A DNA stretch of 33,514 nt from a virus (lineage: Duplodnaviria; Heunggongvirae; Uroviricota; Caudoviricetes), in IMG/VR virus record IMGVR_UViG_3300009502_000019; one strand, 5' to 3'. The notes under the pieces were generated by a model that was not told where the DNA came from, did no database searches, and was given only the letters and a program-made list of their open reading frames with translations. Each line of letters begins with the position of its first letter. Positions within the stretch are counted from its first letter, which is position 1. Below, piece by piece: positions 207-31,183 of this stretch. A program made the translations under genes and the position numbers.

Positions 207-283
207 TGGTCTCCCCGGACCGGATCGAACGGTCGGCCTCCAGTGTAGGAAACTAGCGCTCTGTCCAACTGAGCTACGGGGAG
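207..283 (-). tRNA. trnR: tRNA-Arg(CCT)
   Basis: Cloverleaf CTCCCCG/CGGGGAG, anticodon loop TT-CCT-AC, T-loop TTCGATC, encoded CCA. Confidence 0.95.
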
Positions 284-284
284 T

Positions 285-361
285 TGGTGCCCTTGGGCAG
301 ATTCAAACTGCCAACCTCTTCCTTCGCAGGGAAGCGCTCTATTCAATTGAGCTACAGGGGC
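285..361 (-). tRNA. trnR: tRNA-Arg(GCG)
   Basis: Acceptor GCCCCTG/CAAGGGC (one mismatch), loop CT-GCG-AA, D-loop ..GA.., T-loop TTTGAAT, CCA. Confidence 0.9.
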
Positions 362-362
362 G

Positions 363-509
363 TTATTGTTCTTTTAAAGCTTTAATCAGATCCTTCTTGC
401 CCTTTGACCTAGAGAATGCCTTACCGCTAGGCACAACCCGAGTCTTTGGGTTGATCTCCCAACCGAACCTAGGTCGTACCTCAAGTAACTTCTTGTGCTG
501 CTTATTCAT
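363..509 (-). CDS. 48-aa basic hypothetical protein
   Basis: GGAGGAAG SD upstream; MNKQHKKLLEVRPRFGWEINPKTRVVPSGKAFSRSKGKKDLIKALKEQ* fills the gap between two tRNAs. Confidence 0.6.
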   Translation of the reverse strand: MNKQHKKLLEVRPRFGWEINPKTRVVPSGKAFSRSKGKKDLIKALKEQ

Positions 510-522
510 ACTTCCTCCGAAC

Positions 523-597
523 TGGTAGCGGAACCCGGAGCTGCCCCGGAACTTCTGGCTTATGAAACCAGCGCTCTTCTAGTTAAGCTATTCCGCC
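523..597 (-). tRNA. tRNA with CAT anticodon (elongator Met or Ile2)
   Basis: GGCGGAA/TTCCGCT, loop TT-CAT-AA, T-loop GGCAGCT, A73, CCA. Confidence 0.88.
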
Positions 598-601
598 ATA
601 T

Positions 602-680
602 TGGCTGGGCCTTCTTATTACAACCGTTTCGTCTCTGGTCGGCCTTTCAGAGCGTAATTTCACCCATTGCTACTCCTGCC
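602..680 (-). other. Unclassified CCA-terminated structured RNA candidate in tRNA array
   Basis: 79 nt ending GCCCAGCCA; possible helices TGGGT/GCCCA, ATTAC/GTAAT, CTCTG/CAGAG; no cloverleaf. Confidence 0.35.
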
Positions 681-702
681 AATTCGCTTTGGGCTTCGGA
701 TT

Positions 703-776
703 TGGTCCACCTGAGAGGTAATGCTCCTCCGTCGCCCGGTTATCGGCCGGGTGCTCTGCTATTGAGCTACAGGTGG
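703..776 (-). tRNA. trnI: tRNA-Ile(GAT)
   Basis: CCACCTG/CAGGTGG, loop CC-GAT-AA, T-loop AGCATTA, CCA. Confidence 0.9.
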
Positions 777-822
777 TAATGTCTACTCATCTCAAATGTC
801 CGGTCCACAACGGACGTTTCAT

Positions 823-917
823 TGGTACACGCGGAAGGACTTGAACCTTCATATTTAGCCAGTCCGGCCAATGACCCGGGTATAAACCGGGGGGTTTACC
901 AGTTAACCTACGCGTGC
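823..917 (-). tRNA. trnI: tRNA-Ile(TAT) with 24-nt variable region
   Basis: GCACGCG/CGCGTGT, stem CCCGG/CCGGG, loop TT-TAT-AC, V-arm TTGGCC-GGACT-GGCTAA, T-loop TTCAAGT, A73-CCA; 95 nt. Confidence 0.88.
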
Positions 918-1120
918 CTGTAACCACCTTCAAATTGTCTTACCGCTTCTCTTACTGCACGAACTGTTTGCTGACACATAACACAGCCAGCTATGTGCTG
1001 TTTCATTTTGATATGCCTGCTTTTGCTAAGCGAACCGTCTACGTATTCACCTAACGGCAGTCTACTGCACTTCTCTTCTTGAATGCAATACCACTTAAAC
1101 ACCACGTCCATATCGTCCAT
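908..1120 (-). CDS. Small zinc-finger protein, anti-sigma zf-HC2-like
   Basis: GGAGG SD; L.EYVDG.L...HIAGCVMC (H-x3-C-x2-C) motif. Confidence 0.65.
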   Translation of the reverse strand: MDDMDVVFKWYCIQEEKCSRLPLGEYVDGSLSKSRHIKMKQHIAGCVMCQQTVRAVREAVRQFEGGYRHA

Positions 1121-1277
1121 ACGACCCTCCTTTGGTTTTTATAGGTTACTGCTCTCACCTATATAGAGCCGCAAAGGGGGTACTTTATTACAAACTATTT
1201 TCAACTATTTTGTCGCAAATAGTAGCTACTTTTTCCGACAAACTTGTCACACTTCCGATGTGCTTTTCGTGACAAAC

Positions 1278-1353
1278 TGGTGGGAAGTGAAGGGCACGAT
1301 CCTTCAACCTTCTGCATGTCATACAGATGCTCTTCCAATTGAGCTAACTTCCC
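1278..1353 (-). tRNA. trnV: tRNA-Val(GAC)
   Basis: GGGAAGT/ACTTCCC, loop AT-GAC-AT, T-loop ATCGTGC, CCA. Confidence 0.9.
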
Positions 1354-1354
1354 C

Positions 1355-1430
1355 TGGTGCGTGATGAAGGACTCGAACCTTCGATATCCTGGATGTAGGC
1401 CAGGTGTCCTAGCCGCTGAACGAATCACGC
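1355..1430 (-). tRNA. trnV: tRNA-Val(TAC)
   Basis: GCGTGAT/ATCACGC, loop CC-TAC-AT, T-loop TTCGAGT, CCA. Confidence 0.93.
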
Positions 1431-1433
1431 GTA

Positions 1434-1511
1434 TGGCTGGGGAGGAAGGGATCGAACCTTCCTTATTCTCGGTTAACAGCCGAGCGCCTTCGCCCTGAAG
1501 ACTACTCCCCA
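1434..1511 (-). tRNA. trnN: tRNA-Asn(GTT)
   Basis: TGGGGAG/CTCCCCA, loop CT-GTT-AA, G73-CCA. Confidence 0.93.
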
Positions 1512-1512
1512 A

Positions 1513-1572
1513 TGGTGGACACCCTCAGAGTTGCACTGAGTTCTCCTGTGCTTCTATTACACCATAGCCGCC
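1513..1572 (-). pseudogene. Anticodon-arm-less tRNA remnant (60 nt)
   Basis: D-arm-like GTGT-AATAGA-AGCAC, perfect T-arm CTCAG-TGCAACT-CTGAG and ACCA end; anticodon arm missing, acceptor poorly paired. Confidence 0.7.
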
Positions 1573-1579
1573 ATAAAAC

Positions 1580-2086
1580 TTAACTCAAATACTTTTCCCA
1601 GAGATCCACTATTTCTCCGAGCTTAATTCTTACAATTTCACGAAATCCACGAGGCCTAGCTGGGGTCCTCATTAGCTTAAGCCCCGACTCAGCTAATGTT
1701 CTGTCATCCTTTGAGTAATTGCATGCTTTGCATGCAGTTACGGTGTTATCCCAGGAGTTTTTTCCACCCTTTGATTCCGGGATTACGTGGTCAATTGTCG
1801 TGTTCTTCGCGCCGCACTTTACACTACAGTATTGGCATTGATAATTATCTCGAAGATGCACGTTACGCTTTGTGTAAGAGACATAGCTGATCCTCTCGAA
1901 CACAACACGAACATATCTTTTGAGACGTATTACCGCCGGTACTTTCATAGTTTGACTAACTGAGTGTACTTCCTTATCGTATTCCTCAAGAACAACAGCC
2001 TTATCAGAGTATACAGCAGAGATTGCAGACTGCCAGTCACACACCCCAAGGAATTGGAAATCTAGGTTGAGCACTAAGCAGCGCAT
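1580..2086 (-). CDS. HNH endonuclease (McrA/HNH_5-like)
   Basis: RDNYQCQYC...TIDHVIPESKGGKNSWDNTVTACKACN. Confidence 0.9.
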   Translation of the reverse strand: MRCLVLNLDFQFLGVCDWQSAISAVYSDKAVVLEEYDKEVHSVSQTMKVPAVIRLKRYVRVVFERISYVSYTKRNVHLRDNYQCQYCSVKCGAKNTTIDHVIPESKGGKNSWDNTVTACKACNYSKDDRTLAESGLKLMRTPARPRGFREIVRIKLGEIVDLWEKYLS

Positions 2087-2763
2087 GTTGTTTTCTCCTT
2101 AAATTTATTAGTAAATAAATCTTTCCAATAGTTTCTGTTAAAGTTCGTTCGGCAATGACACTGTTTACAAAGACTAATTAGGTTACTTAATATGTTGTGC
2201 AACTTGTCATAATCAATGTGGTGCACATTCAAACTACAACCTAAAATAACTAAATGCTCTTCCTCTGTTAGACCACATAACTGGCACTGATAATTATCTC
2301 TTTTCCTAACAGACTCTTTTAGGGTGTTGTCAAATTCCGGTCCATATGGTAGGTTAAGCCCGCCAGTCCAATTAGGATTCTCAGGACCTATCCAACGCCC
2401 GTCATAGCACCCATTTTTCTTCTTAGTATCAACACTTTTCTGTACTGCTTCTTCTGATTTTCTCTTTCCAAGCTGTGCCTCTCGTACCCTTATTTTTTGG
2501 TATTCAGATCCATTTTTACCAAACATAGGGTTACTTGAGCCAACCAACTCTTTTCGTTTCGCACGACAAGCCGTGCACCCACAATCAAGTTTGTGTGTGC
2601 TCGTTCCGCCAGTCATTGTCTTTTCATAACAGGATCTGCATCTCTCCCAGGAACTTGTAACCTGAACTTCATGTCTCATACCACATCCTCCGAGGCACTC
2701 CCTGGTTTCTCGCAGCTTCCTGTCTTTTCTAATCTTACTTCGCTTATATACTCCCGTTGGCAT
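2074..2763 (-). CDS. HNH homing endonuclease with NUMOD-type DNA-binding region
   Basis: Likely start MPTGVYKR (AAGGA SD; the ORF-track extension overlaps a tRNA); NPMFGK motif; C-terminal CQLCG...LNVHHIDYDK..N..NLISLCKQCH. Confidence 0.85.
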   Translation of the reverse strand: MPTGVYKRSKIRKDRKLRETRECLGGCGMRHEVQVTSSWERCRSCYEKTMTGGTSTHKLDCGCTACRAKRKELVGSSNPMFGKNGSEYQKIRVREAQLGKRKSEEAVQKSVDTKKKNGCYDGRWIGPENPNWTGGLNLPYGPEFDNTLKESVRKRDNYQCQLCGLTEEEHLVILGCSLNVHHIDYDKLHNILSNLISLCKQCHCRTNFNRNYWKDLFTNKFKEKTTCAA

Positions 2764-2781
2764 AACAATCCTTTCGATCGT

Positions 2782-2856
2782 TGGTCGGAGTAGGGAATCT
2801 TGCAATCCCAACCTCTCGGTCCCGAACCGAGCGCTCTTCTTTTGAGCTACACTCCG
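2782..2856 (-). tRNA. trnP: tRNA-Pro(CGG)
   Basis: CGGAGTG/TACTCCG, loop TT-CGG-GA, T-loop TGCAAGA, CCA. Confidence 0.92.
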
Positions 2857-4208
2857 TTAAAAATATCCTGCTTTTCAGCGAGATACTTTAGATACACTTC
2901 TTTGTCTTCTCCGAGCTTTAGTTCCCCATTCGTCAGTGCCGCCATCACGAGATCCTTAAGCCTTCCAACCTCCTTACCTCCTGGAAGACTGAATCGCTCC
3001 ATGATAGACAGCCCGTCTAGTGGGCACTTAAGTTCTTTGTAGTTCTTTACTTCCTCGATCCTGTTCTTAAGGTGATCGATACGGGCTAGGTTCATTTGAA
3101 CCTTCTCTGGTCTATGGCTAGTAATATCAGCGGCACTCAGAGCGATCAGCTTGTCAAGATGGGCCCCGGTCTCGACAACGTACCTTCTTACCGCTGAATC
3201 TGACCAGTCTTCCTTGTACAGGTTCGTTCTCATGTGGTTCCGGACCAAGTACGTTACGTCCTCGATCACCTTCCGCGGCAGCCCGAGCCGACTCAAGATT
3301 GAATAAGCCATCAGAGCCGAAACCTCTTCGTGCCGGTAGAAGTGCACCCGTCCATCCCACTCAGTCTTAACGTAAGGCTTGCCGACGTCATGGAACAACG
3401 CTGCAAACCTTGAAGCTACTTCAGCCGGCGAGTTCTCAACTACTCCTACCGTATGAAGCCATACATTTTTGCTGTGGTACTTGCTGTCTTGGTCCACAGC
3501 ATTAAGTACCGTCAGCTCCGGGATGAAGTAATTGAGCAGCTTGTACTTCAGCAAGTCATTCAGAGCCTCACCAACGTACTTACCAAGCAGTATCTTGGTG
3601 AACTCGTCTAGGATTCGCTCCTTCGGCAGGAACAGAAGCCTGTGTGCTTCACTTGCTAAAGCCTCTCTTACTCCATCTGAATACAAAAACCCAAACCGCG
3701 ACTTGAACCGGATCGCCCTAAGCATCCTGAGCGGATCGTCGCTAAAGATCTCTGCCGCTTTCATAGGGGTCTCAAGGATCCCCTTTGCCAGGTGCTCCTT
3801 GCCTCCGAAGAGGTCTACTACCTCCCCATTTCGATCCATTGCCAGGGCATTGATCGTAAAGTCCCGGCGGATCAGGTCGTCCGCGATCGTTGTTCCCCAC
3901 TCCACAACCGGCCGGCGGTTATCCCTCTGGTACTTCTCGTTTTTTCTAAATGTAGTTGCTTGTATGATGTACCCATCCATAACAACTTCTATTGTTCCAA
4001 AGGCTTTTCCTACATCGTGTACTTTGTAACCTGCTTTTTGAAAGACCTTTTCAGTATCGTCTGGAAGAAGGTTAATAGCAAAATCCAGATCATCCGTGTC
4101 TTTTCCAAGCAGCTTGTCACGGACTGTGCCACCAACCAAGTATATGTCAGCGTCTTTGAATAGTGAAAATACCTTTTCTACTACCCTATCAGTGATAGTT
4201 TCAGGCAT
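2847..4208 (-). CDS. cca: CCA tRNA nucleotidyltransferase with HD domain
   Basis: YLVGGTVRD..DLDF, RRDFTINALA, DDPLRMLRAIRF, HT...FHDVGKP motifs of class II CCA/poly(A) polymerase family. Confidence 0.93.
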   Translation of the reverse strand: MPETITDRVVEKVFSLFKDADIYLVGGTVRDKLLGKDTDDLDFAINLLPDDTEKVFQKAGYKVHDVGKAFGTIEVVMDGYIIQATTFRKNEKYQRDNRRPVVEWGTTIADDLIRRDFTINALAMDRNGEVVDLFGGKEHLAKGILETPMKAAEIFSDDPLRMLRAIRFKSRFGFLYSDGVREALASEAHRLLFLPKERILDEFTKILLGKYVGEALNDLLKYKLLNYFIPELTVLNAVDQDSKYHSKNVWLHTVGVVENSPAEVASRFAALFHDVGKPYVKTEWDGRVHFYRHEEVSALMAYSILSRLGLPRKVIEDVTYLVRNHMRTNLYKEDWSDSAVRRYVVETGAHLDKLIALSAADITSHRPEKVQMNLARIDHLKNRIEEVKNYKELKCPLDGLSIMERFSLPGGKEVGRLKDLVMAALTNGELKLGEDKEVYLKYLAEKQDIFNGV

Positions 4209-4906
4209 CTTTTTACCGCTGCTTTCTGTAGTACTTGGTTAACTTCTGGACTTCTGCCTAATGTCCATCCGGTGCTTAAATAGTGCAATACTTGTTCTTT
4301 GCGTACGAGCCGGCTCTCTTTTGTTTTTAAATTATGTATGTGTTTCCGCCCAATATGTGCAAGCCTGTTCTTCTCTGTTTGATCTTGTGGCTTTGTTCGG
4401 CCACGTTGCACTTTGCTATTTTTGTTTCTTATTTCAACCGCCCTGTCCACCCCATACTTCTCTGAATAAGTTTTACCTTTGTACTCCCCACGCTTGTACA
4501 TGCAGAAACAACAGATGCAAGTGTCTTCATTGTGCCCGAGTGCTGATAGTGTTTTCCCGACCCGTGCTTCGGACACCCATGGTTTAGGGCCACTCTTTCT
4601 CAGCTTGGTTTCCTCTGAGTCAGGTCCCCATGCTCCGTTTCCGCCGACTGTAATATTGTAACCGGTAGCTCTATCTGTAGAATTAAATTCAGCAATATAC
4701 TTTCTTTCCAAGCGGTCTGCGTCCTCTTGGTTCTGTGCTGTTGCTAGTGTTTCTCGTGTAAAGCCACCTTTTCCATGTTCTTTTATTGCAATTTTTAACA
4801 GTTTTCCGCTTCCAAGATATCCAGGTCTTGCATAGCCAAATTTCTGACCAATGTACACTTTACCGTTAAATTTATTGGTTGTTTTATATATAATCCACTC
4901 ACTCAT
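4181..4906 (-). CDS. GIY-YIG homing endonuclease
   Basis: Likely start MSEWIIYKTTNKFNGKVYIGQ (AAGG SD); YLGSG, GYNIT motifs; NUMOD3-like SEETKLRKS. Confidence 0.88.
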   Translation of the reverse strand: MSEWIIYKTTNKFNGKVYIGQKFGYARPGYLGSGKLLKIAIKEHGKGGFTRETLATAQNQEDADRLERKYIAEFNSTDRATGYNITVGGNGAWGPDSEETKLRKSGPKPWVSEARVGKTLSALGHNEDTCICCFCMYKRGEYKGKTYSEKYGVDRAVEIRNKNSKVQRGRTKPQDQTEKNRLAHIGRKHIHNLKTKESRLVRKEQVLHYLSTGWTLGRSPEVNQVLQKAAVKRCLKLSLIG

Positions 4907-4920
4907 ATCATGCCTTTCAT

Positions 4921-4994
4921 TGGCTGACCTGCAGGGATTCGCACCCCAATTTTTCGGTTCAGAGCCGAACGTCCTACTGTTGGACGACAGGTCA
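4921..4994 (-). tRNA. trnQ: tRNA-Gln(CTG)
   Basis: TGACCTG/CAGGTCA, loop CT-CTG-AA, T-loop TGCGAAT, G73-CCA. Confidence 0.92.
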
Positions 4995-4998
4995 ATGT

Positions 4999-5073
4999 TG
5001 GTCGGGGTGGTGAATTTTGAAATCACGACCTCTCGCTCCCAAAGCGAGCGCTCTGCCTCTGAGCTACACCCCG
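4999..5073 (-). tRNA. trnP: tRNA-Pro(TGG)
   Basis: CGGGGTG/CACCCCG, loop TT-TGG-GA, CCA. Confidence 0.94.
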
Positions 5074-5084
5074 AAATTAACTAC

Positions 5085-5097
5085 ATTTTAAAGAACA
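5085..5097 (-). promoter_or_regulatory. boxA-like antitermination element
   Basis: TGTTCTTTAAAAT in spacer between tRNA-Gln(TTG) and tRNA-Pro(TGG). Confidence 0.55.
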
Positions 5098-5103
5098 ACA
5101 CAT

Positions 5104-5177
5104 TGGCTGGCGATGGAGGTACCGCCCCTCCGCCTCAAGGTTCAAAGCCTCGCACGCTGCTATTACGCCAATCGCCA
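5104..5177 (-). tRNA. trnQ: tRNA-Gln(TTG)
   Basis: TGGCGAT/ATCGCCA, loop CT-TTG-AA, T-loop GGCGGTA, CCA. Confidence 0.9.
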
Positions 5178-5178
5178 T

Positions 5179-5254
5179 TGGTGGGCTCGGCGGGCAATGA
5201 TCCCGCAACCTTCTCCTTAAGAGGGAGTTGCTCTGCCAATTGAGCTACGAACCC
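5179..5254 (-). tRNA. trnK: tRNA-Lys(CTT)
   Basis: GGGTTCG/CGAGCCC, loop CT-CTT-AA, T-loop ATCATTG, CCA. Confidence 0.92.
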
Positions 5255-5259
5255 AATAC

Positions 5260-5336
5260 TGGTGCGTCCGGCAGGAATCGAACCTACTCTTGGTCCTGGT
5301 TAAAAGCCAGGCGTCTACCCAGTCGACTTCGGACGC
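5260..5336 (-). tRNA. trnK: tRNA-Lys(TTT)
   Basis: GCGTCCG/CGGACGC, loop CT-TTT-AA, T-loop TTCGATT, CCA. Confidence 0.92.
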
Positions 5337-5341
5337 TTATG

Positions 5342-5773
5342 TTACGCAATTCTCATTACTCTAGTTGGTCTTCCTCTGCCTTTGTTTCTTGACCCATAAA
5401 ACTCTGTTAATGTGTGGCAGTTAGGGCAAAGTAGTTCTAGATTTTCTTCACGGTTGTTTTTCCAGTTACCGTCCTTATGCTCAATCTGCAAAGGAACTTT
5501 TCCTGTATAGATGTTAACCTCTGACCATTCGCATTTCGAGCACTTGCTTTTGTACTTCTCAAACAAATATTTTCTTACATGCCCAGAGATGGAGGAGACT
5601 CCTTTTCCACCATTCTCTAGCCCCTGCTTCCATCGACGTATGTACAAATCATATGCAGTCTTATTTTTAACTCTGACCACATGTCTGTTTCCACACATAC
5701 GAGAACAAAATAGCCGATGACATTTCCTAGAAGAAAACTCTTTTTTACATTCGTTACATACATATGTATGCAT
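5342..5773 (-). CDS. HNH endonuclease
   Basis: Likely start MHTYVCNEC (GAGG SD; the ORF-track extension overlaps tRNA-Cys); LQIEHKDGNWKNNREENLELLCPNCH. Confidence 0.87.
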   Translation of the reverse strand: MHTYVCNECKKEFSSRKCHRLFCSRMCGNRHVVRVKNKTAYDLYIRRWKQGLENGGKGVSSISGHVRKYLFEKYKSKCSKCEWSEVNIYTGKVPLQIEHKDGNWKNNREENLELLCPNCHTLTEFYGSRNKGRGRPTRVMRIA

Positions 5774-5787
5774 TATATTACCCTCAG

Positions 5788-5874
5788 TGGAGACGGCTGT
5801 CGGACTTGCACCGACGTGTGGATTGCTCCAACAGGTTTTGCAGACCTGCACATTCGCTGCTCTGTCAAGCCGTC
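5788..5874 (-). tRNA. trnC: tRNA-Cys(GCA) with long variable arm
   Basis: GACGGCT/AGCCGTC, loop CT-GCA-AA, U73, V-arm TGGA-GCAA-TCCA, T-loop TGCAAGT; 87 nt. Confidence 0.88.
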
Positions 5875-5875
5875 A

Positions 5876-5964
5876 TGGAAGCGGAGATGGGAGTTGCACC
5901 CATCAGCTGCTTTTGGCAGCTCCGGCTTATGAGACCGGTTAGCCCACTGGGGCTCGTCTCCGCA
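5876..5964 (-). tRNA. Non-canonical CAT-anticodon tRNA with long V-arm and 5-bp D-stem
   Basis: (T)GCGGAG/CTCCGC(T), D-arm AGCCC-CAGT-GGGCT, loop CT-CAT-AA, V-arm AGCTGC-CAAAA-GCAGCT, T-arm ATGGG-TGCAACT-CCCAT, U73-CCA. Confidence 0.8.
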
Positions 5965-5974
5965 ATGAATAATA

Positions 5975-5988
5975 CTTTTCAAAAAACA
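5975..5988 (-). promoter_or_regulatory. Degenerate boxA-like element
   Basis: TGTTTTTTGAAAAG, one core mismatch to TGTTCTTTGAAAA. Confidence 0.35.
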
Positions 5989-5991
5989 AAC

Positions 5992-6065
5992 TGGCGGGCC
6001 AGCAAGGTGACGCTCCCTGGTCTTCGGTTTTGGAGACCGACGTTCTACTGTTGAACTACTGACCC
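5992..6065 (-). tRNA. trnW: tRNA-Trp(CCA)
   Basis: GGGTCAG/CTGGCCC, loop CT-CCA-AA, T-loop AGCGTCA, G73-CCA. Confidence 0.9.
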
Positions 6066-6073
6066 ATAACTTT

Positions 6074-6164
6074 TGGCGGTGGGTAGACGAGTCGAACGCC
6101 TAAAGGGCTATTAACCCTTAACCGGGTTCAAGCCGGTCGGACCTGCCAATGTACCAAACCCACC
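6074..6164 (-). tRNA. trnS: tRNA-Ser(TGA)
   Basis: GGTGGGT/ACCCACC, loop CT-TGA-AC, long V-arm, G73-CCA. Confidence 0.9.
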
Positions 6165-6174
6165 ATTTTATTAC

Positions 6175-6247
6175 ATCGGCAAACATCGCCAACTTTCGAT
6201 CTTTGCCGATCTGCTACTGCACAATAACATATCTAATGTTATCGTGC
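6175..6247 (-). other. Tandem stable hairpins in tRNA spacer (possible small RNA or processing signal)
   Basis: 12-bp GCACGATAACAT/ATGTTATTGTGC hairpin, 8-nt linker, 9-bp ATCGGCAAA/TTTGCCGAT hairpin. Confidence 0.4.
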
Positions 6248-6252
6248 GTTAC

Positions 6253-6339
6253 TGGCGGAAGAGGTAGGTGCTGCCCCTACAAGCCTTTTACAGCTCCCGT
6301 TTTCGAGACGGGTGAGCTCTCTAACTGCTCAGCTCTTCC
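6253..6339 (-). tRNA. trnS: tRNA-Ser(CGA)
   Basis: GGAAGAG/CTCTTCC, loop CT-CGA-AA, V-arm, T-loop GGCAGCA, G73-CCA. Confidence 0.9.
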
Positions 6340-6340
6340 T

Positions 6341-6427
6341 TGGCGGAGGAGGTGGGGTACGATCCCACATGCCTTTTACAGCACCCGCGTTCCAGGCGGG
6401 CGAGCCACCAAATTGCTCAACTCCTCC
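6341..6427 (-). tRNA. trnS: tRNA-Ser(GGA)
   Basis: GGAGGAG/CTCCTCC, loop CT-GGA-AC, V-arm, T-loop ATCGTAC, CCA. Confidence 0.92.
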
Positions 6428-6429
6428 AT

Positions 6430-6520
6430 CGGCGGAAGACGTCGGTGCTGCCCCGACCAGACGTTTGCACGTCTCCAACTTAGCAGGTTGGCCCAGCTAA
6501 CTGATATCTGGCTGTCTTCC
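6430..6520 (-). tRNA. trnS: tRNA-Ser(GCT), genomic 3' end CCG
   Basis: GGAAGAC/GTCTTCC, loop CT-GCT-AA, V-arm AGACGT-GCAA-ACGTCT, T-loop GGCAGCA. Confidence 0.9.
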
Positions 6521-6528
6521 ATAAAAAT

Positions 6529-6813
6529 ATTTGAGAACTATAACCCGGGTTCTGTAGTTACCTTTCAGTAACTGCTAATCATCTGTCTAAGCTCCAAACC
6601 CGCTACTATTGACTGAGTAAGTCAGTAGCCTATTTTGGATTGCATCATGCAAGGATTGCCAACGTTTCACTCCCACTAAAGGGTTTCGTCACTGTGGCTC
6701 TATACTCTCAGTCTTTCAACTGGTCAAAGTTATTAGCTTTGATGCACTACTCTTGATGCCCGGAGTTTCCTCGAATATCCATTGCAGATACCCGCGATTA
6801 GCCGTTCTCAAAT
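6529..6813 (-). ncRNA. rnpB: RNase P RNA (compact bacterial-type)
   Basis: P1 ATTTGAGAAC/GTTCTCAAAT; P4 strands GAGGAAACTCCGGGC (6772-6758) and ACAGAACCCGGGTTA (6555-6541) with a compensatory C-G; GCCACAG, GTGAAAC, GGCAATCC, CAAAATAGG and AGACAGATGAT conserved blocks in the right order. Confidence 0.9.
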
Positions 6814-7490
6814 TTTACTTTAATGCATCCACAATTAAACATCCTACCTCGTATCCATCCTTCTTTCGTATAACCTTGAAGTGCGTCTTCTGTAACAAGT
6901 TTAGATTGGTGTAGTTTTACATTTGAAATCCACTTCTTACCCTTCCAGCTGTTCCGATTTTTTCCGTTAGTACAACCCCCCGATCCTGGAAAAAACTTTC
7001 TACCTCTTATCCAACCATTATTGATATAGTCTGAAAACTCTTCTTTATTAGCCCATCTAGATTGTTTTAATTGTAAGTTAGATATCCACTTGTGCTCTGC
7101 CGTTCGTCCAACTTTTCCAAACATTCCATTCTTTTTACCCGCATGATTTCCATGACTAGCACTTTCTTTCATCTTCTTTCTAGTTTCTTCTGAAGCTTTC
7201 CAACCAGGACAACCGTCTCCGCCATCAGCTAGGTTATATACGTTATCTTTTCCAATGTAATTTCTGCACTCAGCGACATACTTTATTTCTAGCATGTCTA
7301 ATGTAATTTTATCATTAGCATACTCTATTGCTTTTACACGAAAATTATGTTTACCGTACTTTTTGATGGCTTGCTTTAAGTAAGATCCACTACCAAAATA
7401 TTTAGGATTAAACTTACCTTTCTTTTGACCAACATACAGTTTACCATTGACCAAGTTAGTAGTCAGATAAACATATCCGTACATGTTCAT
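6798..7490 (-). CDS. GIY-YIG homing endonuclease
   Basis: Likely start MNMYGYVYLTTNLVNGKLYVGQ (GGAG SD); YFGSG, YNL..GG, SEETRKKM; two C-terminal KWISN...GWIRGR repeats. Confidence 0.88.
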   Translation of the reverse strand: MNMYGYVYLTTNLVNGKLYVGQKKGKFNPKYFGSGSYLKQAIKKYGKHNFRVKAIEYANDKITLDMLEIKYVAECRNYIGKDNVYNLADGGDGCPGWKASEETRKKMKESASHGNHAGKKNGMFGKVGRTAEHKWISNLQLKQSRWANKEEFSDYINNGWIRGRKFFPGSGGCTNGKNRNSWKGKKWISNVKLHQSKLVTEDALQGYTKEGWIRGRMFNCGCIKVKFENG

Positions 7491-7500
7491 AGCACACTCC

Positions 7501-7527
7501 AAAAAAAGAAGGGCACCTTTCGGGTGC
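7501..7527 (-). terminator. Intrinsic terminator-like hairpin in leader of GIY-YIG gene
   Basis: GCACC-CGAAA-GGTGC followed by CCTTCTTTTTTT. Confidence 0.5.
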
Positions 7528-7612
7528 TTGTAGGATATCCGGTTATGGCTATCCAACCCTACGGGTGCCCTAAAAATAGGCATAAAAATACCGAAGTCCT
7601 ACAAGCAACTGC

Positions 7613-7641
7613 ATTATACCGCGTTTTGGAGCAAAAGTCAA
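7613..7641 (-). promoter_or_regulatory. sigma70-type promoter P2
   Basis: TTGACT-17 bp-TATAAT. Confidence 0.85.
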
Positions 7642-7660
7642 GAACTATTTCAAATTAAAT

Positions 7661-7734
7661 TGGCGGTCCATGGGAGAATTAAACTCCCGCTTTAAGCGTG
7701 ACAAGCTTACGTGCTATCACTACACCAATGAACC
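7661..7734 (-). tRNA. trnD: tRNA-Asp(GTC)
   Basis: GGTTCAT/ATGGACC, loop TT-GTC-AC, T-loop TTTAATT, G73-CCA. Confidence 0.9.
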
Positions 7735-9275: not shown

Positions 9276-10153
9276 CGAAATGTCCCAAAGATGGCTTTGT
9301 GTACTTTCGGCCAGACCTGAACTTCATTTAGAAGGATGTGCCTGGCTTCTGACAGTTCTGGCAGGTGCTCTTCATAGAACCTGCTGTTTATGATATTTCT
9401 TACGTCGTCCCCGTGCCCGTTGATGTCGAGGTACTTAAACGAGGTAGCCGGTAGAACTTTGTGGACTCCGCGCCCTCCCCAGTAGATCGGCATAGCCCAG
9501 AGAAGCATGCAGTCAAGGATCCTCTCTGAGAAGTAGTGCTCGCCAACATTGTCAAACTCAAGCATGTATTTGTACTGCTCATACACAGGCTCTTTTCCGG
9601 ACCAGTAGTCTCCGGCATGCTGCACTGAGTACTGCCCGCAGGCCCCTTTGTAATGTGAAACAAGACTTCCGAATGGCCGTATTCGTCCGTAGATGTCTAG
9701 AATACCCGGGTTCTGTGAGCACATACGCTCCAAGAACTCTCTCCTGACTCTGTGGCTGTCGTCGCTAGAAGAGTTGCTTACGATCGTACCAAGTAGCTTC
9801 GTCTTTGGCATTGGCTGCAATTTAGACAGGTAATCGTAATCATAGGTAATCCACCACTCCAAAAACCCTAACGTATGTTTACAATCAAACTTTGCTAAGG
9901 CATTAAACCCATCCATGTCTTGGTAGTACTTGAGCGTCTCCGGGTGTGCTCCGAGAAACACACACTTGTTCTCCGGAATGTGGCTGTAGTCTGACGTTAG
10001 CTTGTCAATTACGGCGTAGCAGTCCGCTTCATCCAGATTACCCGTTCCAACAAGGTTCCCCCAGACGCCTGAGCGCCCGGGGGTCATCTTGCGAAAGGTA
10101 TCCAGGAGCTTTTGGGGCTGTTCACTGTTACCTATGAACGCCAGTTTTTTCAT
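9272..10153 (-). CDS. GT10 (alpha-1,3-fucosyltransferase)-like glycosyltransferase
   Basis: YKYMLEFDN...YFSERILD...AMPIYWG resembles the GT10 nucleotide-sugar motif. Confidence 0.7.
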   Translation of the reverse strand: MKKLAFIGNSEQPQKLLDTFRKMTPGRSGVWGNLVGTGNLDEADCYAVIDKLTSDYSHIPENKCVFLGAHPETLKYYQDMDGFNALAKFDCKHTLGFLEWWITYDYDYLSKLQPMPKTKLLGTIVSNSSSDDSHRVRREFLERMCSQNPGILDIYGRIRPFGSLVSHYKGACGQYSVQHAGDYWSGKEPVYEQYKYMLEFDNVGEHYFSERILDCMLLWAMPIYWGGRGVHKVLPATSFKYLDINGHGDDVRNIINSRFYEEHLPELSEARHILLNEVQVWPKVHKAIFGTFR

Positions 10154-10818
10154 GGGTTTTCCAGTTTTAGAAGTTTTCTGAAATACTTGTCCATAACCAA
10201 AAGTATTTTTACTTTTGGGTACAGTTTTTTAAATAGTTCGAACTTTTCCTTATCCGGTCCCCTCCAAAATCCTTTAAATTCTATATATGTACACATCATC
10301 GGAGTGTAAAAATCTGGGGTGTAGGTACTATCTCCCAAGTCAAATACCTTCGGTTCGTATTCCCATACTACCTTTTTACGGTCTAAGTATTCAGCAAAAG
10401 CTGCTTCTCGTTTTGATCGAAACCGTACTCCATTGTAGAATATACGCTTTCCGTGGTGAGCTATTTTACCAAACATGGGGTTGTTTTTTCCAGACATCCG
10501 TAGACTTTGGCTAGGATTTGGAACCCCAGCTCGACAGCATTTTCTACACTTTGAATACTTAACCTTCCCTTTTCTAAAAGCATACTTGCTTAAAAGAACA
10601 CCACATCCAGTGCAATGGACTTTTGGGTTCTTTCGTAGCAAGTACATATGATACCTGCAATGTTTTGCAATTTTGCTTTTTAAAGAGTCTCCGCAGACCC
10701 TACACTTTTTATGAATAGATTTTTTATACCCAGGGTGGTTCTTGCCAACATATAGACCGTTCTTCGCACTACAGATACAACAAGAACAGCCCTTCTTATG
10801 CGGATTTGAATTACCCAT
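10150..10818 (-). CDS. Free-standing PD-(D/E)xK endonuclease with Cys-rich/NUMOD N-terminus
   Basis: Likely start MGNSNPHKK (coupled to licD stop); FRSKREAAFAEYLD...WEYEP...YTPDFY..IEFKG. Confidence 0.75.
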   Translation of the reverse strand: MGNSNPHKKGCSCCICSAKNGLYVGKNHPGYKKSIHKKCRVCGDSLKSKIAKHCRYHMYLLRKNPKVHCTGCGVLLSKYAFRKGKVKYSKCRKCCRAGVPNPSQSLRMSGKNNPMFGKIAHHGKRIFYNGVRFRSKREAAFAEYLDRKKVVWEYEPKVFDLGDSTYTPDFYTPMMCTYIEFKGFWRGPDKEKFELFKKLYPKVKILLVMDKYFRKLLKLENP

Positions 10819-11425
10819 TGTTAATATTGTACTTTTTATTCTTATTAGGAGTACGCCAGTTTTTGTCATACATAAGTTCAAGCCACTCCTCGATGTGGTT
10901 CGGGATCTTGAACGTGACACCCCGGAATACGAAGTCTTGAAGCTCATCGTAGTACCTCGCCGGGTGCTTCAGCTGATACCCGCAACGCGGCTTATCATAG
11001 ACGTAATAGTCACCTTCCTTCTCAAACCACCATCCCTCGATCTTCTCCCCGTTACGAATGAAATTCGTGTCGTAATAAGGGGCGTTGTCGTTTGTGATCG
11101 GCTTTGTTGGATCCCCCTCGGTGACGATGTACCCGGCAGCCCGCATTTCGTCGATAACGGGGTAGATACGTGTCCTTTGTGAGAAGTCGAGAGCAATGTC
11201 CACGTCATCGTCCCAGGCGATGAAATTCTGGTCCCGGTAGGCGCCAAGCATCGTTCCGTGCGACAGCCAATGCTTGATTCCGTGCTTGGTCAAGCAGGCG
11301 CTGACCTCGCAAAGGTTGTTAAACAGAGCATCCCTATCGATAGGGCGGGTACGGCCCCCTGCCTGACCTCGTTCCCATATCGGTAAATGTTTGCTCCAAA
11401 TATCTAAATTGGGGTTCAGATCCAT
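10811..11425 (-). CDS. licD: LicD-family nucleotidyl/phosphotransferase
   Basis: WLSHGTMLGAYRDQNFIAWDDDVDI motif. Confidence 0.85.
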   Translation of the reverse strand: MDLNPNLDIWSKHLPIWERGQAGGRTRPIDRDALFNNLCEVSACLTKHGIKHWLSHGTMLGAYRDQNFIAWDDDVDIALDFSQRTRIYPVIDEMRAAGYIVTEGDPTKPITNDNAPYYDTNFIRNGEKIEGWWFEKEGDYYVYDKPRCGYQLKHPARYYDELQDFVFRGVTFKIPNHIEEWLELMYDKNWRTPNKNKKYNINNG

Positions 11426-11964
11426 TACGCGCCTCGCTTCCTTTCTGAGAAAACTACACCTTCCAGTTCAAGCACCGACACGTTCAATCCCTCGCAGATA
11501 TCGCGTACGTGCTGAACACACTTGAAGAACTCATCGTTGTCCTTCTTAACGTTTAGATACAAGTCTTCCTTGTCGAGCATGAGCATCTTTATACCACAAT
11601 CATAGATGATTTCACCAAGCCTTTTGATGCCCATTTTGGTCTCGATCTTGGGAACGAACTGCACGGTGGGCGGGAGCTTCGCCTGGATCTCCTTCACAAT
11701 GCTGACCTTCTCGATGTTCGATACCGCGAAGTACTTTACGTTCTTCCACTTCGCACATAGGTCGTAGGCTGTTTCCATAGCAATAACAGGGGTCGGGGGC
11801 TTTGTCCTGCCCTGGGGGTAGTCAAGAAAGACATCCTTGTCCTCGTTAGTCTTTAGAATCTGCTCCAGTTCCTCGACAGTATTAACCCAAGCCATGTTGA
11901 TACGAATGACAGAGTCGTTTGGAAGTGCCATGTATTTCTGTAGGTTATTTGATACGATTATCAT
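11425..11964 (-). CDS. Minimal pyruvate-kinase-barrel / HpcH-like protein
   Basis: IRINMAW, FLDYPQGRTK, FVPKIET, LMLDKEDL align by eye to PK barrel motifs (RLNFSH, LDTKGP, KIE, MVARGDL); no B/C domains. Confidence 0.55.
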   Translation of the reverse strand: MIIVSNNLQKYMALPNDSVIRINMAWVNTVEELEQILKTNEDKDVFLDYPQGRTKPPTPVIAMETAYDLCAKWKNVKYFAVSNIEKVSIVKEIQAKLPPTVQFVPKIETKMGIKRLGEIIYDCGIKMLMLDKEDLYLNVKKDNDEFFKCVQHVRDICEGLNVSVLELEGVVFSERKRGA

Positions 11965-12220
11965 TTTTCTTTACCCTTATGTAGAGAGTTATGTAAAAGA
12001 CAGTTGTTAAAATTGCGATCACGTACTTTATTACGAGAGGGTTTTGCCGGATGAGGATGGCATACCAAAGGGCGATTACGTTGCCGACCAGGTACATAAC
12101 GTACAGGAGTAGACTCACGCCATCGACGCACTTGGTTTTCACCGTCTTTATGATCTGAGGCACAATCACCACAGAGAATATTACAGTTGCCGTCCATCCA
12201 AGAATATCAGGTAGGCTCAT
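11945..12220 (-). CDS. PQ-loop (SemiSWEET-like) membrane protein
   Basis: Three hydrophobic helices, PQIIKTVKTKCVDGVS. Confidence 0.8.
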   Translation of the reverse strand: MSLPDILGWTATVIFSVVIVPQIIKTVKTKCVDGVSLLLYVMYLVGNVIALWYAILIRQNPLVIKYVIAILTTVFYITLYIRVKKNDNRIK

Positions 12221-12611
12221 TTTTTATCCGCTCAATTATTTTAGATGTTGATGTGCCGTCATACCTGGACAAGTTTAGGCGCTTTGATTCCGGTATTTCA
12301 TAAAGATTTGCTATGTGATGCTGGTCTTCTCCGACTACGATCAGGTCGCACGTATCGAGAATGTCTTTAGGTATGCGAAACTCGTCCACTCCAACGGTCT
12401 CTCGGACACATCCGAGAGCGCTTATGATAGCCATGCGTTCGTCAAAAGGAACTATGGGACGCGATGGCCCTTTCTGGCGCTTTACGGCTTCATCAGTAAC
12501 AACTCCGACAATAAGCCACCCTTCTCCGCTCCCCTGGTAGGCATTATACAGTAGGTTCAAGTGGCCGAAGTGGAACAGATCCCATACCCCCAAGCAAAAT
12601 ACTTTTTTCAT
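12207..12611 (-). CDS. HxGH cytidylyltransferase (TagD/RfaE-II-like)
   Basis: GVWDLFHFGHLNLL, KGPSRPIVPFDER, GTSTSKII. Confidence 0.88.
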   Translation of the reverse strand: MKKVFCLGVWDLFHFGHLNLLYNAYQGSGEGWLIVGVVTDEAVKRQKGPSRPIVPFDERMAIISALGCVRETVGVDEFRIPKDILDTCDLIVVGEDQHHIANLYEIPESKRLNLSRYDGTSTSKIIERIKNEPT

Positions 12612-12612
12612 G

Positions 12613-13569
12613 TTACAAGCTCCTTAGTTTGTTGTAGATGAACGGCCACGTTTGAAGTTCGTTTAGAAGAATATGCCTGGCTGCTGCAATGTCCTTTATG
12701 TGGCTCTCGCGAAATGTGCTGTTAACAATATTGACGGCCCGCTCAGCTTCTTTTGTTACACCTTCCAACGGCCCATCTATCCTAACATACGCGAAAGAGT
12801 CCTTCGGGACAAACTCGTGTACATTGTCACCACCAAAGTAAATAGGCATGGTCCACAGAAGCATGCTGTCGTAAAATCTCTCTGATAGATAATTATGCAC
12901 TGGCCTTCCGGTAAACATCACTCCAACATCAAAGTCTAGCGCGTACCGGTAGTCTACTTCTATGTCTTTGCCTACAAAGTGGTCTCCGACAGACACATCC
13001 ATGGTGGATGCAGGTATGCCGGCTACCCCACGATAGAACTTGTTTATAACTGGATTACTCATGAACTTCGAGTCTTGCCTTCCAAAGATGTCTATGTTGT
13101 CTGACTTCTTAACGTATTCCTCCAGGAACCTGATACGCTGGCCGTAGGTCGGGCGGTCGATGCTGTCTTCCTGATAGGTAGTGATGCTTATAACGTCCTT
13201 GCTCTTCTTTGGAGGAGTCATTGCCATAAGTGCATCATAGTCATGGCTAATCCACCACTCGCCAGGGTTGAGGCATGTATCGTTCGGAAACACTGCAATA
13301 GCTCCAGGCACGTTTGTCATCGCATGGTAGGACCTGACACCTTTCGGATGCTGCGCAAAGCACACTACCCTGTCCCTTGGAATAGGGTGAGCATCCAGGG
13401 GAAGAGGACCGTCCATGCAAACAACATAGTCAGCCGCGAAAGGATCGGTTACAGCCTCCATACTTTCCCAGCGACCAGACTTTTTTGGTGTCATTTTTAT
13501 AAGTGTTCTCAGAAGAGCCGTCGGATCTTTAAAATGCTGCGACACGAAACACACTTTAAACTGCTTCAT
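12613..13569 (-). CDS. GT10-like glycosyltransferase (paralogue of 9272..10153)
   Basis: YRYALDFD...YLSERFYDSMLLWTMPIYFG; shared EWWI..DYD.L motif. Confidence 0.7.
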   Translation of the reverse strand: MKQFKVCFVSQHFKDPTALLRTLIKMTPKKSGRWESMEAVTDPFAADYVVCMDGPLPLDAHPIPRDRVVCFAQHPKGVRSYHAMTNVPGAIAVFPNDTCLNPGEWWISHDYDALMAMTPPKKSKDVISITTYQEDSIDRPTYGQRIRFLEEYVKKSDNIDIFGRQDSKFMSNPVINKFYRGVAGIPASTMDVSVGDHFVGKDIEVDYRYALDFDVGVMFTGRPVHNYLSERFYDSMLLWTMPIYFGGDNVHEFVPKDSFAYVRIDGPLEGVTKEAERAVNIVNSTFRESHIKDIAAARHILLNELQTWPFIYNKLRSL

Positions 13570-14133
13570 TTAGATACTCTCTCTATACACTTGTTCAAGC
13601 CGGAGTCTTATTTTTGTTGCTTGGCGAAGTATTCGGTCTTTGTTTCTGTCCTTTATCTTCTTAATAGGAACACCCGCGTATACGGACCACGGGTCAAGTT
13701 TCGAGAATGCCGGAACCCAACTAAGCCCTCCAATAACTGTTCCCTCAGGTATCACCGTTCCTGGCATTATGACGGAGTTAGTTCCTACACCACAGTAGTC
13801 TCCGATAGTCACATCTCCAGAGCACATCTCCATACCAATGTCGTAGTCTGGCGCTAATATAACAAGGTCATTAACGAAGTCGTTACTGCCACAATAGATC
13901 TTCACGCCGGATGCGATCGACCCGAAGTCACCCATTGTAAACTGCCTGTCTTTTCCTCCAGCGATAACGCAGGATGCCGCTACGTGAGACATCATCCCGA
14001 TCTTTACCTTAGTAGAGAAGTAACAAAAGTCGTCCACTACGGAGTGGTCTCCAACGACAAAGAACTCCGGATGTCTGATACGCGTGTTACTAGATACAAT
14101 GTTCCTGATGCGCATACCGTTAGATAGCATCAT
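13570..14133 (-). CDS. Hexapeptide-repeat (left-handed beta-helix) acyltransferase
   Basis: Likely start MMLSNG (GGAG SD); VTIGDYCGVGTNSVIMPGTVI, VYAGVP. Confidence 0.85.
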   Translation of the reverse strand: MMLSNGMRIRNIVSSNTRIRHPEFFVVGDHSVVDDFCYFSTKVKIGMMSHVAASCVIAGGKDRQFTMGDFGSIASGVKIYCGSNDFVNDLVILAPDYDIGMEMCSGDVTIGDYCGVGTNSVIMPGTVIPEGTVIGGLSWVPAFSKLDPWSVYAGVPIKKIKDRNKDRILRQATKIRLRLEQVYRESI

Positions 14134-31182: not shown

Positions 31183-31183
31183 C

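Follow-up and report, generated by a model that had tools for sequence, protein, structure and literature searches.

We determined that a 33,514-nucleotide stretch of Caudoviricetes DNA (the window, which is part of the 46.8-kb IMG/VR virus record IMGVR_UViG_3300009502_000019) encodes, in four overlapping genes, a cytidylyltransferase (CT), a SemiSWEET-like PQ-loop membrane protein, a minimal pyruvate kinase (PK)-like barrel protein that we refer to as mini-PK, and a LicD-family phosphotransferase. What is new is the mini-PK family together with the near-obligate association of its members with nucleotidyltransferases; the four-gene grouping is confirmed and recurs elsewhere, and its interpretation is partly supported. 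The reading that we tentatively favour, at somewhat less than an even chance, is that the four genes make up one accessory glycan-decoration cassette of a large phage, in which the mini-PK takes the slot of LicA or TarJ and uses phosphoenolpyruvate (PEP) to make a phosphomonoester, X-P, of a small molecule X.

A preliminary description of this DNA had proposed four translationally coupled genes, and the open reading frames (ORFs) lie exactly where it had placed them, on the minus strand like all genes of the region (Table 1). As read from the sequence, the CT and PQ-loop genes overlap by 14 nt, the PQ-loop and mini-PK genes by 20 nt, and the mini-PK and LicD genes by 1 nt within a shared TAATG; overlaps at all three junctions are consistent with translational coupling. 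The SemiSWEET-like, HxGH cytidylyltransferase and LicD identities that had been assigned to three of the products also hold, as PF04193, PF01467 and PF04991 all score above their cutoffs (see below).

Table 1. Genes of the four-gene module in the window
Gene	Position	Strand	Product length	Product
CT	12207-12611	-	134 aa	HIGH-type (HxGH) cytidylyltransferase, ECT/TagD/RfaE-II-like
PQ-loop gene	11945-12220	-	91 aa	SemiSWEET-like PQ-loop membrane protein
mini-PK	11425-11964	-	179 aa	Minimal pyruvate-kinase-like TIM barrel
LicD	10811-11425	-	204 aa	LicD-family phosphotransferase

Profile scans assigned the mini-PK to no Pfam, NCBIfam or PHROG family, and a literature search found no description of such a family. 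The protein scores below cutoff with both the PK family PF00224 (15.4 bits versus 30, E 0.01) and the HpcH/HpaI family PF03328 (14.2 bits versus 25, E 0.027), and for several family members the HpcH_HpaI score equals that of PK. Homologues form about 200 clusters at 50% identity in two very large protein collections, where they are unnamed or 'hypothetical'. Nearly all of them are standalone proteins of 165–190 aa (about 175 aa for the family), and they stem mostly from viral contigs, but also from metagenome-assembled genomes (MAGs) of the candidate phyla radiation (CPR; Patescibacteria) and of DPANN archaea. An apparent HNH::mini-PK fusion (P0168) was discarded, since it seems to reflect the insertion of a homing endonuclease or an artefact of gene calling.

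Conserved residues and the predicted fold connect this family to PK. An alignment of 40 mini-PK sequences contains 25 invariant columns (S5, R21, N23, A25, W26, L47, D48, P50, R53, P57, A80, S82, N83, P105, K106, I107, E108, G112, D131, E133, D134, E166, L167, V170 and F172). Comparison of the family profile with the PDB gave 104 matches, and all 60 of the matches listed are pyruvate kinases (best E 1.4e-5, residues 54–151). Both in this comparison and in an hhalign alignment to Escherichia coli PykF, S82, K106-I-E108 and D134 align to the Ser, the catalytic Lys-Ile-Glu and the Mg-binding Asp of PK; K106-I-E108 and D134 are invariant in 63 sequences. R21-x-N23 and L47-D48 are likewise invariant, giving the motif order R-x-N, L-D, S, K-I-E, D that is found in PK. 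Sequence alignment to PykF, with or without its B domain, failed for the N-terminal third, and the putative equivalence of R-x-N and L-D to the PK phosphate/K+ site is based on the order of the motifs and on how far the structural superposition extends. The family has extra invariant acidic residues (E85, D131 and E133, with E166 at 86%).

The AlphaFold2 model of the mini-PK (predicted local distance difference test score 96.6, predicted template-modelling score 0.90) is a single-domain barrel with seven strands assigned. Searched with this predicted model, the best structural match is PK (Z 15.7, 164 residues, root-mean-square deviation 2.5), with which HpcH/CitE-type lyases effectively tie (Z 13.6–15.6). 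The superposition sets PK residues 22..338 on model residues 1..174 and omits the PK B domain; the mini-PK, a single barrel, has neither the B (lid) nor the C (allosteric) domain, and the RGDLG loop of PK is DKEDL in it. As modelled, the mini-PK is thus a PEP/pyruvate-type barrel, closest to PK, without B and C domains. The most fitting description is that of a new family in the PK-like superfamily, in which the catalytic core is kept while membership in PF00224 failed.

A neighbourhood census of 62 loci (24 genome and 38 viral), each carrying a mini-PK homologue of 36–66% identity, was then used to follow the module beyond the window; its ORFs were searched with the window proteins and subsequently with family hidden Markov models. 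A HIGH-type nucleotidyltransferase is encoded within 6 kb of the mini-PK in 50 of the 62 loci, and in 41 it is the immediate neighbour, in many cases with codons that overlap; these loci come from CPR phyla, DPANN archaea, Omnitrophota, Planctomycetota and viruses. Because a CT-type gene adjoins such divergent mini-PK homologues in 41 of 62 independent loci, the grouping is not due to chance. In addition, we found fusions of CT to mini-PK (L005:5557-6531), of PQ-loop to mini-PK (P0122) and of mini-PK to LicD (P0264), and adjacency and fusions together indicate that the module is a genuine functional unit. In locus L032, the CT, PQ-loop and mini-PK genes overlap and have the same order as in the window, with LicD some 0.5 kb further downstream. 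Thus, two expectations of the preliminary description, that the genes would co-occur elsewhere and that the 179-aa protein would prove to be a PK-type barrel, are borne out, the former by the adjacent nucleotidyltransferases and the fusions, the latter by profile, AlphaFold2 model and superposition.

The transferase slot of these loci is filled by three almost exclusive classes: LicD, TagF-like Glyphos_transf and sulfotransferase. LicD is found in 10 viral loci, in 8 of which it directly follows the mini-PK; the TagF-like class occurs in 17 loci, mostly CPR genomes, where the arrangement is TagF-like gene, CT, mini-PK, glycosyltransferase family 4 (GT4) gene, UDP-GlcNAc 2-epimerase; and sulfotransferases are found in 16 viral loci and in the genome loci L013 and L021. 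The LicD and TagF families both use cytidine diphosphate (CDP)-alcohol donors (PMC12275187, PMC8587909). That LicD and TagF-like transferases alternate beside the same CT–mini-PK pair is our main argument that this pair delivers a CDP-X donor.

In several of the census loci the mini-PK has other neighbours, and the loci are rich in further decorating enzymes (sulfo-, carbamoyl- and methyl-transferases). In the Omnitrophota locus L025 (3786-6546), a TagF-like gene, a bona fide ATP sulfurylase (PUA_2 and ATP-sulfurylase, E 8e-81) and the mini-PK are consecutive, and no CT was detected within 6 kb of the mini-PK; this arrangement fits none of the models that we considered. The Kaiserbacteria locus L013 (5502-10705) encodes, in this order, a PQ-loop protein, the mini-PK, a sulfotransferase, a fused Sat-CysC synthase for 3'-phosphoadenosine 5'-phosphosulfate (PAPS), a CysQ-like phosphatase and a CT::cupin fusion, and thus holds a complete sulfation island beside the module. 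In L062 (5291-6001), a GT-A NTP_transferase lies directly upstream of the mini-PK, and in L030 (6518-7612) the mini-PK is followed by a 364-aa protein with a HAD phosphatase C-terminus, which clusters with the L062 GT-A transferase. A viral clade (L047:5217-7172; also L049, L053, L031, L050, L051 and L055) has four consecutive genes, for a 116-aa NMNAT-like nucleotidyltransferase (GRFQPFHxGH), a 141-aa protein of the P-loop type resembling adenosine 5'-phosphosulfate (APS) kinase, a mini-PK with His at position 26 (H26), and a sulfotransferase. This set could be a minimal pathway to PAPS or to a PAPS-like 3'-phospho-NDP-X donor, where NDP stands for nucleoside diphosphate.

The partners of the mini-PK in the window were assigned to families. 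The CT matches PF01467 (50.6 bits versus a cutoff of 21, E 2.9e-13), and its translation contains HFGH and RYDGTSTS, corresponding to the HxGH and RTxGxST(S/T) signatures. It falls far below the cutoffs of both the TagD equivalog TIGR01518 (31.8 versus 165.4) and the RfaE domain II equivalog TIGR02199 (63.4 versus 181.5), so that neither its subfamily nor its substrate is assignable. Its best solved relative is human ethanolamine-phosphate cytidylyltransferase (PCYT2; E 1.2e-19), followed by a putative cytidylyltransferase (PDB 5x9q, E 1.2e-10) and TagD (E 4.9e-9). The PQ-loop protein matches PF04193 (56.4 bits versus a cutoff of 22, E 2.5e-15) and MtN3_slv (E 1.9e-6), and scores 43.5 bits with NCBIfam SemiSWEET_2, under the cutoff of 80; a PQ motif and three hydrophobic stretches in 91 aa make it a single PQ-loop unit. 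LicD matches PF04991 (66.7 bits versus a cutoff of 22.6, E 4.2e-18) in two stretches, at profile positions 3-77 and 189-226, that is, at both profile ends. Its acidic motif AWDDDVDIAL aligns to WDYDVD of fukutin-related protein (FKRP), which is its best solved relative (E 1.4e-4). FKRP is a CDP-ribitol-dependent ribitol-phosphate transferase.

In classical cassettes of this kind, LicA or TarJ forms the precursor, and a cytidylyltransferase and a transferase complete the triad. From the families and their arrangement, we infer the following catalytic steps, of which the choice of acceptor by the mini-PK is the least direct. The mini-PK would be a pared-down PK barrel that has kept the PEP/Mg2+ phosphoryl-transfer centre and lost the nucleotide lid (B domain); in the precursor slot, it would phosphorylate X using PEP, or using a nucleoside triphosphate (NTP) in the reverse PK direction. 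The CT, as an ECT/TagD-type enzyme, is proposed to make the CDP-activated donor, converting cytidine triphosphate (CTP) and X-P to CDP-X. LicD is proposed to transfer phospho-X from CDP-X to a hydroxyl of the glycan built by the surrounding glycosyltransferase cluster, releasing cytidine monophosphate (CMP), and the SemiSWEET-like protein, where present, would bring X across the membrane or anchor the complex. The fusion of PQ-loop protein and mini-PK fits an import that is coupled to phosphorylation. Only two of 401 sampled Patescibacteria genomes matched the mini-PK, both of them already-known carriers, and such a sporadic accessory distribution fits a self-sufficient cassette that must make an unusual X-P. 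The preliminary description had suggested a logic like that of the lic genes; its later steps, in which the CT makes CDP-X and LicD transfers phospho-X, fit the families and the alternation of LicD and TagF-like genes, while phosphorylation of X by a PK barrel remains an inference.

A bolder version of this proposal, which we consider doubtful, would make the mini-PK the founder of a new enzyme family and the smallest phosphotransferase of the PK superfamily, with direct phosphorylation by PEP of a small non-nucleotide acceptor that the SemiSWEET protein delivers. Such a capture route, independent of the phosphotransferase system, would feed CDP-activation and decoration by LicD or TagF, and would be a mobile cassette that spreads between phages, bacteria of the CPR and DPANN archaea.

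A number of observations weigh against the reading that we favour. For X there are only candidates (ethanolamine, glycerol, an alpha-hydroxy acid, or another polyol or sugar). Near the mini-PK, a PQ-loop gene is found in only 7 of the 62 loci, which makes it an optional part of the module, and every fusion is a single metagenomic gene call and possibly an assembly error. Of the five mini-PK-bearing CPR genomes, two have no detected enolase, PK or pyruvate phosphate dikinase (PPDK), so that the PEP supply is uncertain there; enolase was found in two of the five and a PPDK-like gene in three, in each case in MAGs that may be incomplete. Moreover, the mini-PK directly follows an ATP sulfurylase in L025 and a GT-A NTP_transferase in L062, and such enzymes need no kinase for X. 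Finally, apart from position 26, the active-site residues of the mini-PK are invariant whether the neighbour is LicD, TagF-like or a sulfotransferase, an unexpected constancy for an enzyme that would phosphorylate a variable X.

This combination of varied nucleotidyltransferase neighbours and a context-independent active site makes a nucleotide-centred role a serious rival. The mini-PK might be a true minimal pyruvate kinase that uses PEP to regenerate NTPs for its partner, CDP to CTP beside cytidylyltransferases and adenosine diphosphate (ADP) to adenosine triphosphate (ATP) beside adenylyl-type enzymes and APS kinase, with X-P coming from ordinary metabolism. We regard this as unlikely, if far from negligible. 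Pyruvate kinases are the nearest relatives of the mini-PK in sequence and its best matches in structure, the catalytic residues and the positions matching the phosphate-binding Arg/Lys of PK are invariant in every context, and the partners belong to four nucleotidyltransferase classes (TagD/ECT-like, the 116-aa NMNAT-like enzyme with GRFQPFHxGH, ATP sulfurylase and GT-A NTP_transferase). The sole residue to switch, W26 to H, tracks the type of partner: outside one viral clade, position 26 is W in each of 43 sequences, almost all of which have TagD-like partners, whereas it is H in 19 and Y in 1 of the 20 sequences of the viral clade with the NMNAT-like enzyme and the APS-kinase-like protein. 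Position 132 shifts along with it, from a residue that is mostly K to A, S or G. Position 26 corresponds to the His of the PK motif R-x-N-x-S-H, which lies between the Asn and those residues of the A-alpha-2 helix that contact the nucleotide base, and it is the B domain of PK that supplies the ribose and beta-phosphate contacts (bioRxiv 10.1101/2024.06.25.600556). The switch and its location in PK together suggest that the mini-PK recognises its partner's nucleotide, for example in a reaction of PEP and CDP to CTP. However, the B domain is absent from the mini-PK, and the switch is confined to one clade, and hence represents a single evolutionary event, while the mini-PK of L025 is W26 although its partner is an ATP sulfurylase. 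LicD and TagF release CMP rather than CDP, so that a CMP kinase would still be required. Nor is there a gap to fill: nucleoside diphosphate kinase (NDK) is encoded by four of the five CPR carriers, and genome G003 has a canonical PK alongside the mini-PK. NTP regeneration would also leave the PQ-loop and LicD fusions unexplained.

Two further explanations appear less probable. Sites of the PK type bind an alpha-oxy-carboxylate by chelation on Mg2+, and glycolate is known to be phosphorylated by PK; X-P could accordingly be a phospho-hydroxy-acid, with the mini-PK phosphorylating glycerate, lactate or glycolate with NTP in the reverse PK direction, or merely binding PEP. In that case, the product of the CT would be CDP-glycerate or CDP-enolpyruvate, from which LicD would transfer an acidic phospho-group. 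In keeping with this, the catalytic residue K106 is invariant, as are both Mg ligands, E108 and D134, and CDP-glycerate is a documented metabolite, made by CpgD from 2- or 3-phosphoglycerate; CpgD, however, belongs to another nucleotidyltransferase class, COG1213 (PMC12275187). Since phosphoglycerate and PEP are widespread in metabolism and would call for no enzyme of their own, and the window CT is nearest to ethanolamine-phosphate and glycerol-phosphate enzymes, we judge this explanation quite improbable. Alternatively, the mini-PK could be an independent glycan modifier that uses PEP or pyruvate (a pyruvyl transferase or an HpcH-like aldolase), or could remove or use the released pyrophosphate, and could be found beside the CT only via shared decoration islands. 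The near-equal structural scores of PK and HpcH/CitE lyases (Z 14–15.7), the equal Pfam scores of several members, the extra acidic residues, which could bind more metal ions, and the abundance of sulfo-, carbamoyl- and methyl-transferases at these loci would all be in line with such a role. The immediate adjacency that is seen, frequently with codons that overlap, in 41 of the 62 loci, which are very divergent, and the CT::mini-PK fusion argue against it, as do the R-x-N before L-D and the Lys preceding I-E, which are PK-like and not CitE/HpcH-like, and the exclusive presence of PK among the 60 listed profile matches; we therefore hold an independent role to be improbable.

Three other possibilities were set aside. 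Replacement of the housekeeping PK in CPR bacteria was rejected, given the occurrence of the mini-PK in 2 of 401 genomes, the canonical PK in G003, and NDK in four of five carriers. Filling of a pyrophosphatase gap is unsupported; the pyrophosphatase PPase-I is present in two of the five carriers, which says little either way. A PEP mutase/phosphonate route was set aside: the ICL/PEPM fold scores lower, at Z 10.6, and no phosphonopyruvate decarboxylase turned up among the Pfam-scanned neighbours, in which no dedicated search for it was made.

The cassette that we favour would work by analogy to several known systems, while being a member of none; all that it shares with them is LicD and the broad CT family. 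It resembles licABCD of Haemophilus and Streptococcus pneumoniae, in which a permease, a kinase and a cytidylyltransferase serve a LicD that places a phospho-alcohol on a surface glycan, and the LicD proteins belong to the same Pfam family. However, LicA is a choline kinase of the APH fold, LicB a DMT permease and LicC a GT-A nucleotidyltransferase, whereas here the kinase and permease slots hold non-homologous proteins, the PK-like barrel and the SemiSWEET-like protein, and a HIGH-type CT stands in place of LicC; none of the LicA, LicB and LicC families was detected in the four genes or their neighbours by Pfam/NCBIfam scans. The TagD/TagF (CDP-glycerol) and TarI/TarJ/TarL (CDP-ribitol) pathways are similar in having a small HIGH-type CT of the TagD kind, and the CPR CT–mini-PK pair adjoins TagF-like Glyphos_transf genes and a UDP-GlcNAc 2-epimerase, with the mini-PK in the position of TarJ. 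In contrast, the transferase of the window is LicD and not TagF, the TagD equivalog score is far under its cutoff, and we know of no PK-like enzyme in the Tag/Tar pathways. PK itself shares with the mini-PK the barrel fold, the catalytic Lys-Ile-Glu, the Mg-binding Asp and the motif order, but it has about 470 aa rather than 179 and possesses the B and C domains.

In mammals, PCYT2 and fukutin/FKRP make and use CDP-glycerol and CDP-ribitol for O-mannosyl glycans. PCYT2 and FKRP, the closest solved relatives of CT and LicD, are only distantly related to them; according to the review PMC8587909, this pair makes a CDP-polyol and transfers polyol-phosphate. The mammalian pathway has no PK-like or PQ-loop partner, and the likeness does not imply the same substrate. 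In the O-methyl-phosphoramidate pathway of Campylobacter jejuni, a kinase of the PEP-utiliser superfamily (Cj1418), a CT (Cj1416) and a 3'-kinase homologous to APS kinase (Cj1415) build a PAPS-like donor. An outwardly similar set is found in the H26 viral clade (nucleotidyltransferase, APS-kinase-like protein, mini-PK and a protein of the sulfotransferase fold); the module in the window, however, has no adjoining APS-kinase-like or sulfotransferase gene.

Decoration pathways that run on CDP-alcohols (lic, tag/tar, fukutin) shape the receptors used by phages, recognition by the immune system and the charge of the cell envelope. The module described here would be a recurrent, mobile pathway of the CDP-alcohol type, in which the precursor or energy step falls to an undescribed family of about 175 aa, a natural minimal PK barrel. 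Once defined, the mini-PK reaction would annotate about 200 clusters (50% identity) in viruses and ultra-small prokaryotes and show how far the PK scaffold can shrink; it may turn out to be a PEP-dependent kinase chemistry not seen before, or to belong to a partner dedicated to regenerating CTP or ATP for glycan decoration.

In the window, the module is embedded in a long glycan cluster that encodes a GDP-mannose 4,6-dehydratase, a DegT/LegC-type aminotransferase, a hexapeptide acyltransferase, several glycosyltransferase-like proteins and methyltransferases. A DNA search of positions 10000-14000 against INPHARED phages gave no match. Immediately after LicD lies a homing-endonuclease-like ORF (10150-10947, minus strand; Phage_endo_I, NUMOD3), whose likely internal start at 10816 overlaps the LicD stop (ATGGGTAA); it has the look of a mobile element inserted where the module ends. 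Fifteen tRNA genes are spread over window positions 207-7734 (minus strand), with a tRNA nucleotidyltransferase at 2847-4208 and GIY-YIG and HNH endonuclease-like ORFs scattered among them (4181-5026, 6798-7583 and 2074-2811). With these tRNA genes, the tRNA nucleotidyltransferase and several homing endonucleases, the record looks like a large lytic phage and not like the 'provirus' class given by IMG/VR. Towards the other end of the window (27182-33349, minus strand), three large consecutive ORFs of 651, 681 and 721 aa have no PHROG family; of these, only the 721-aa ORF has Pfam matches, a weak LVIVD repeat and DUF7099.

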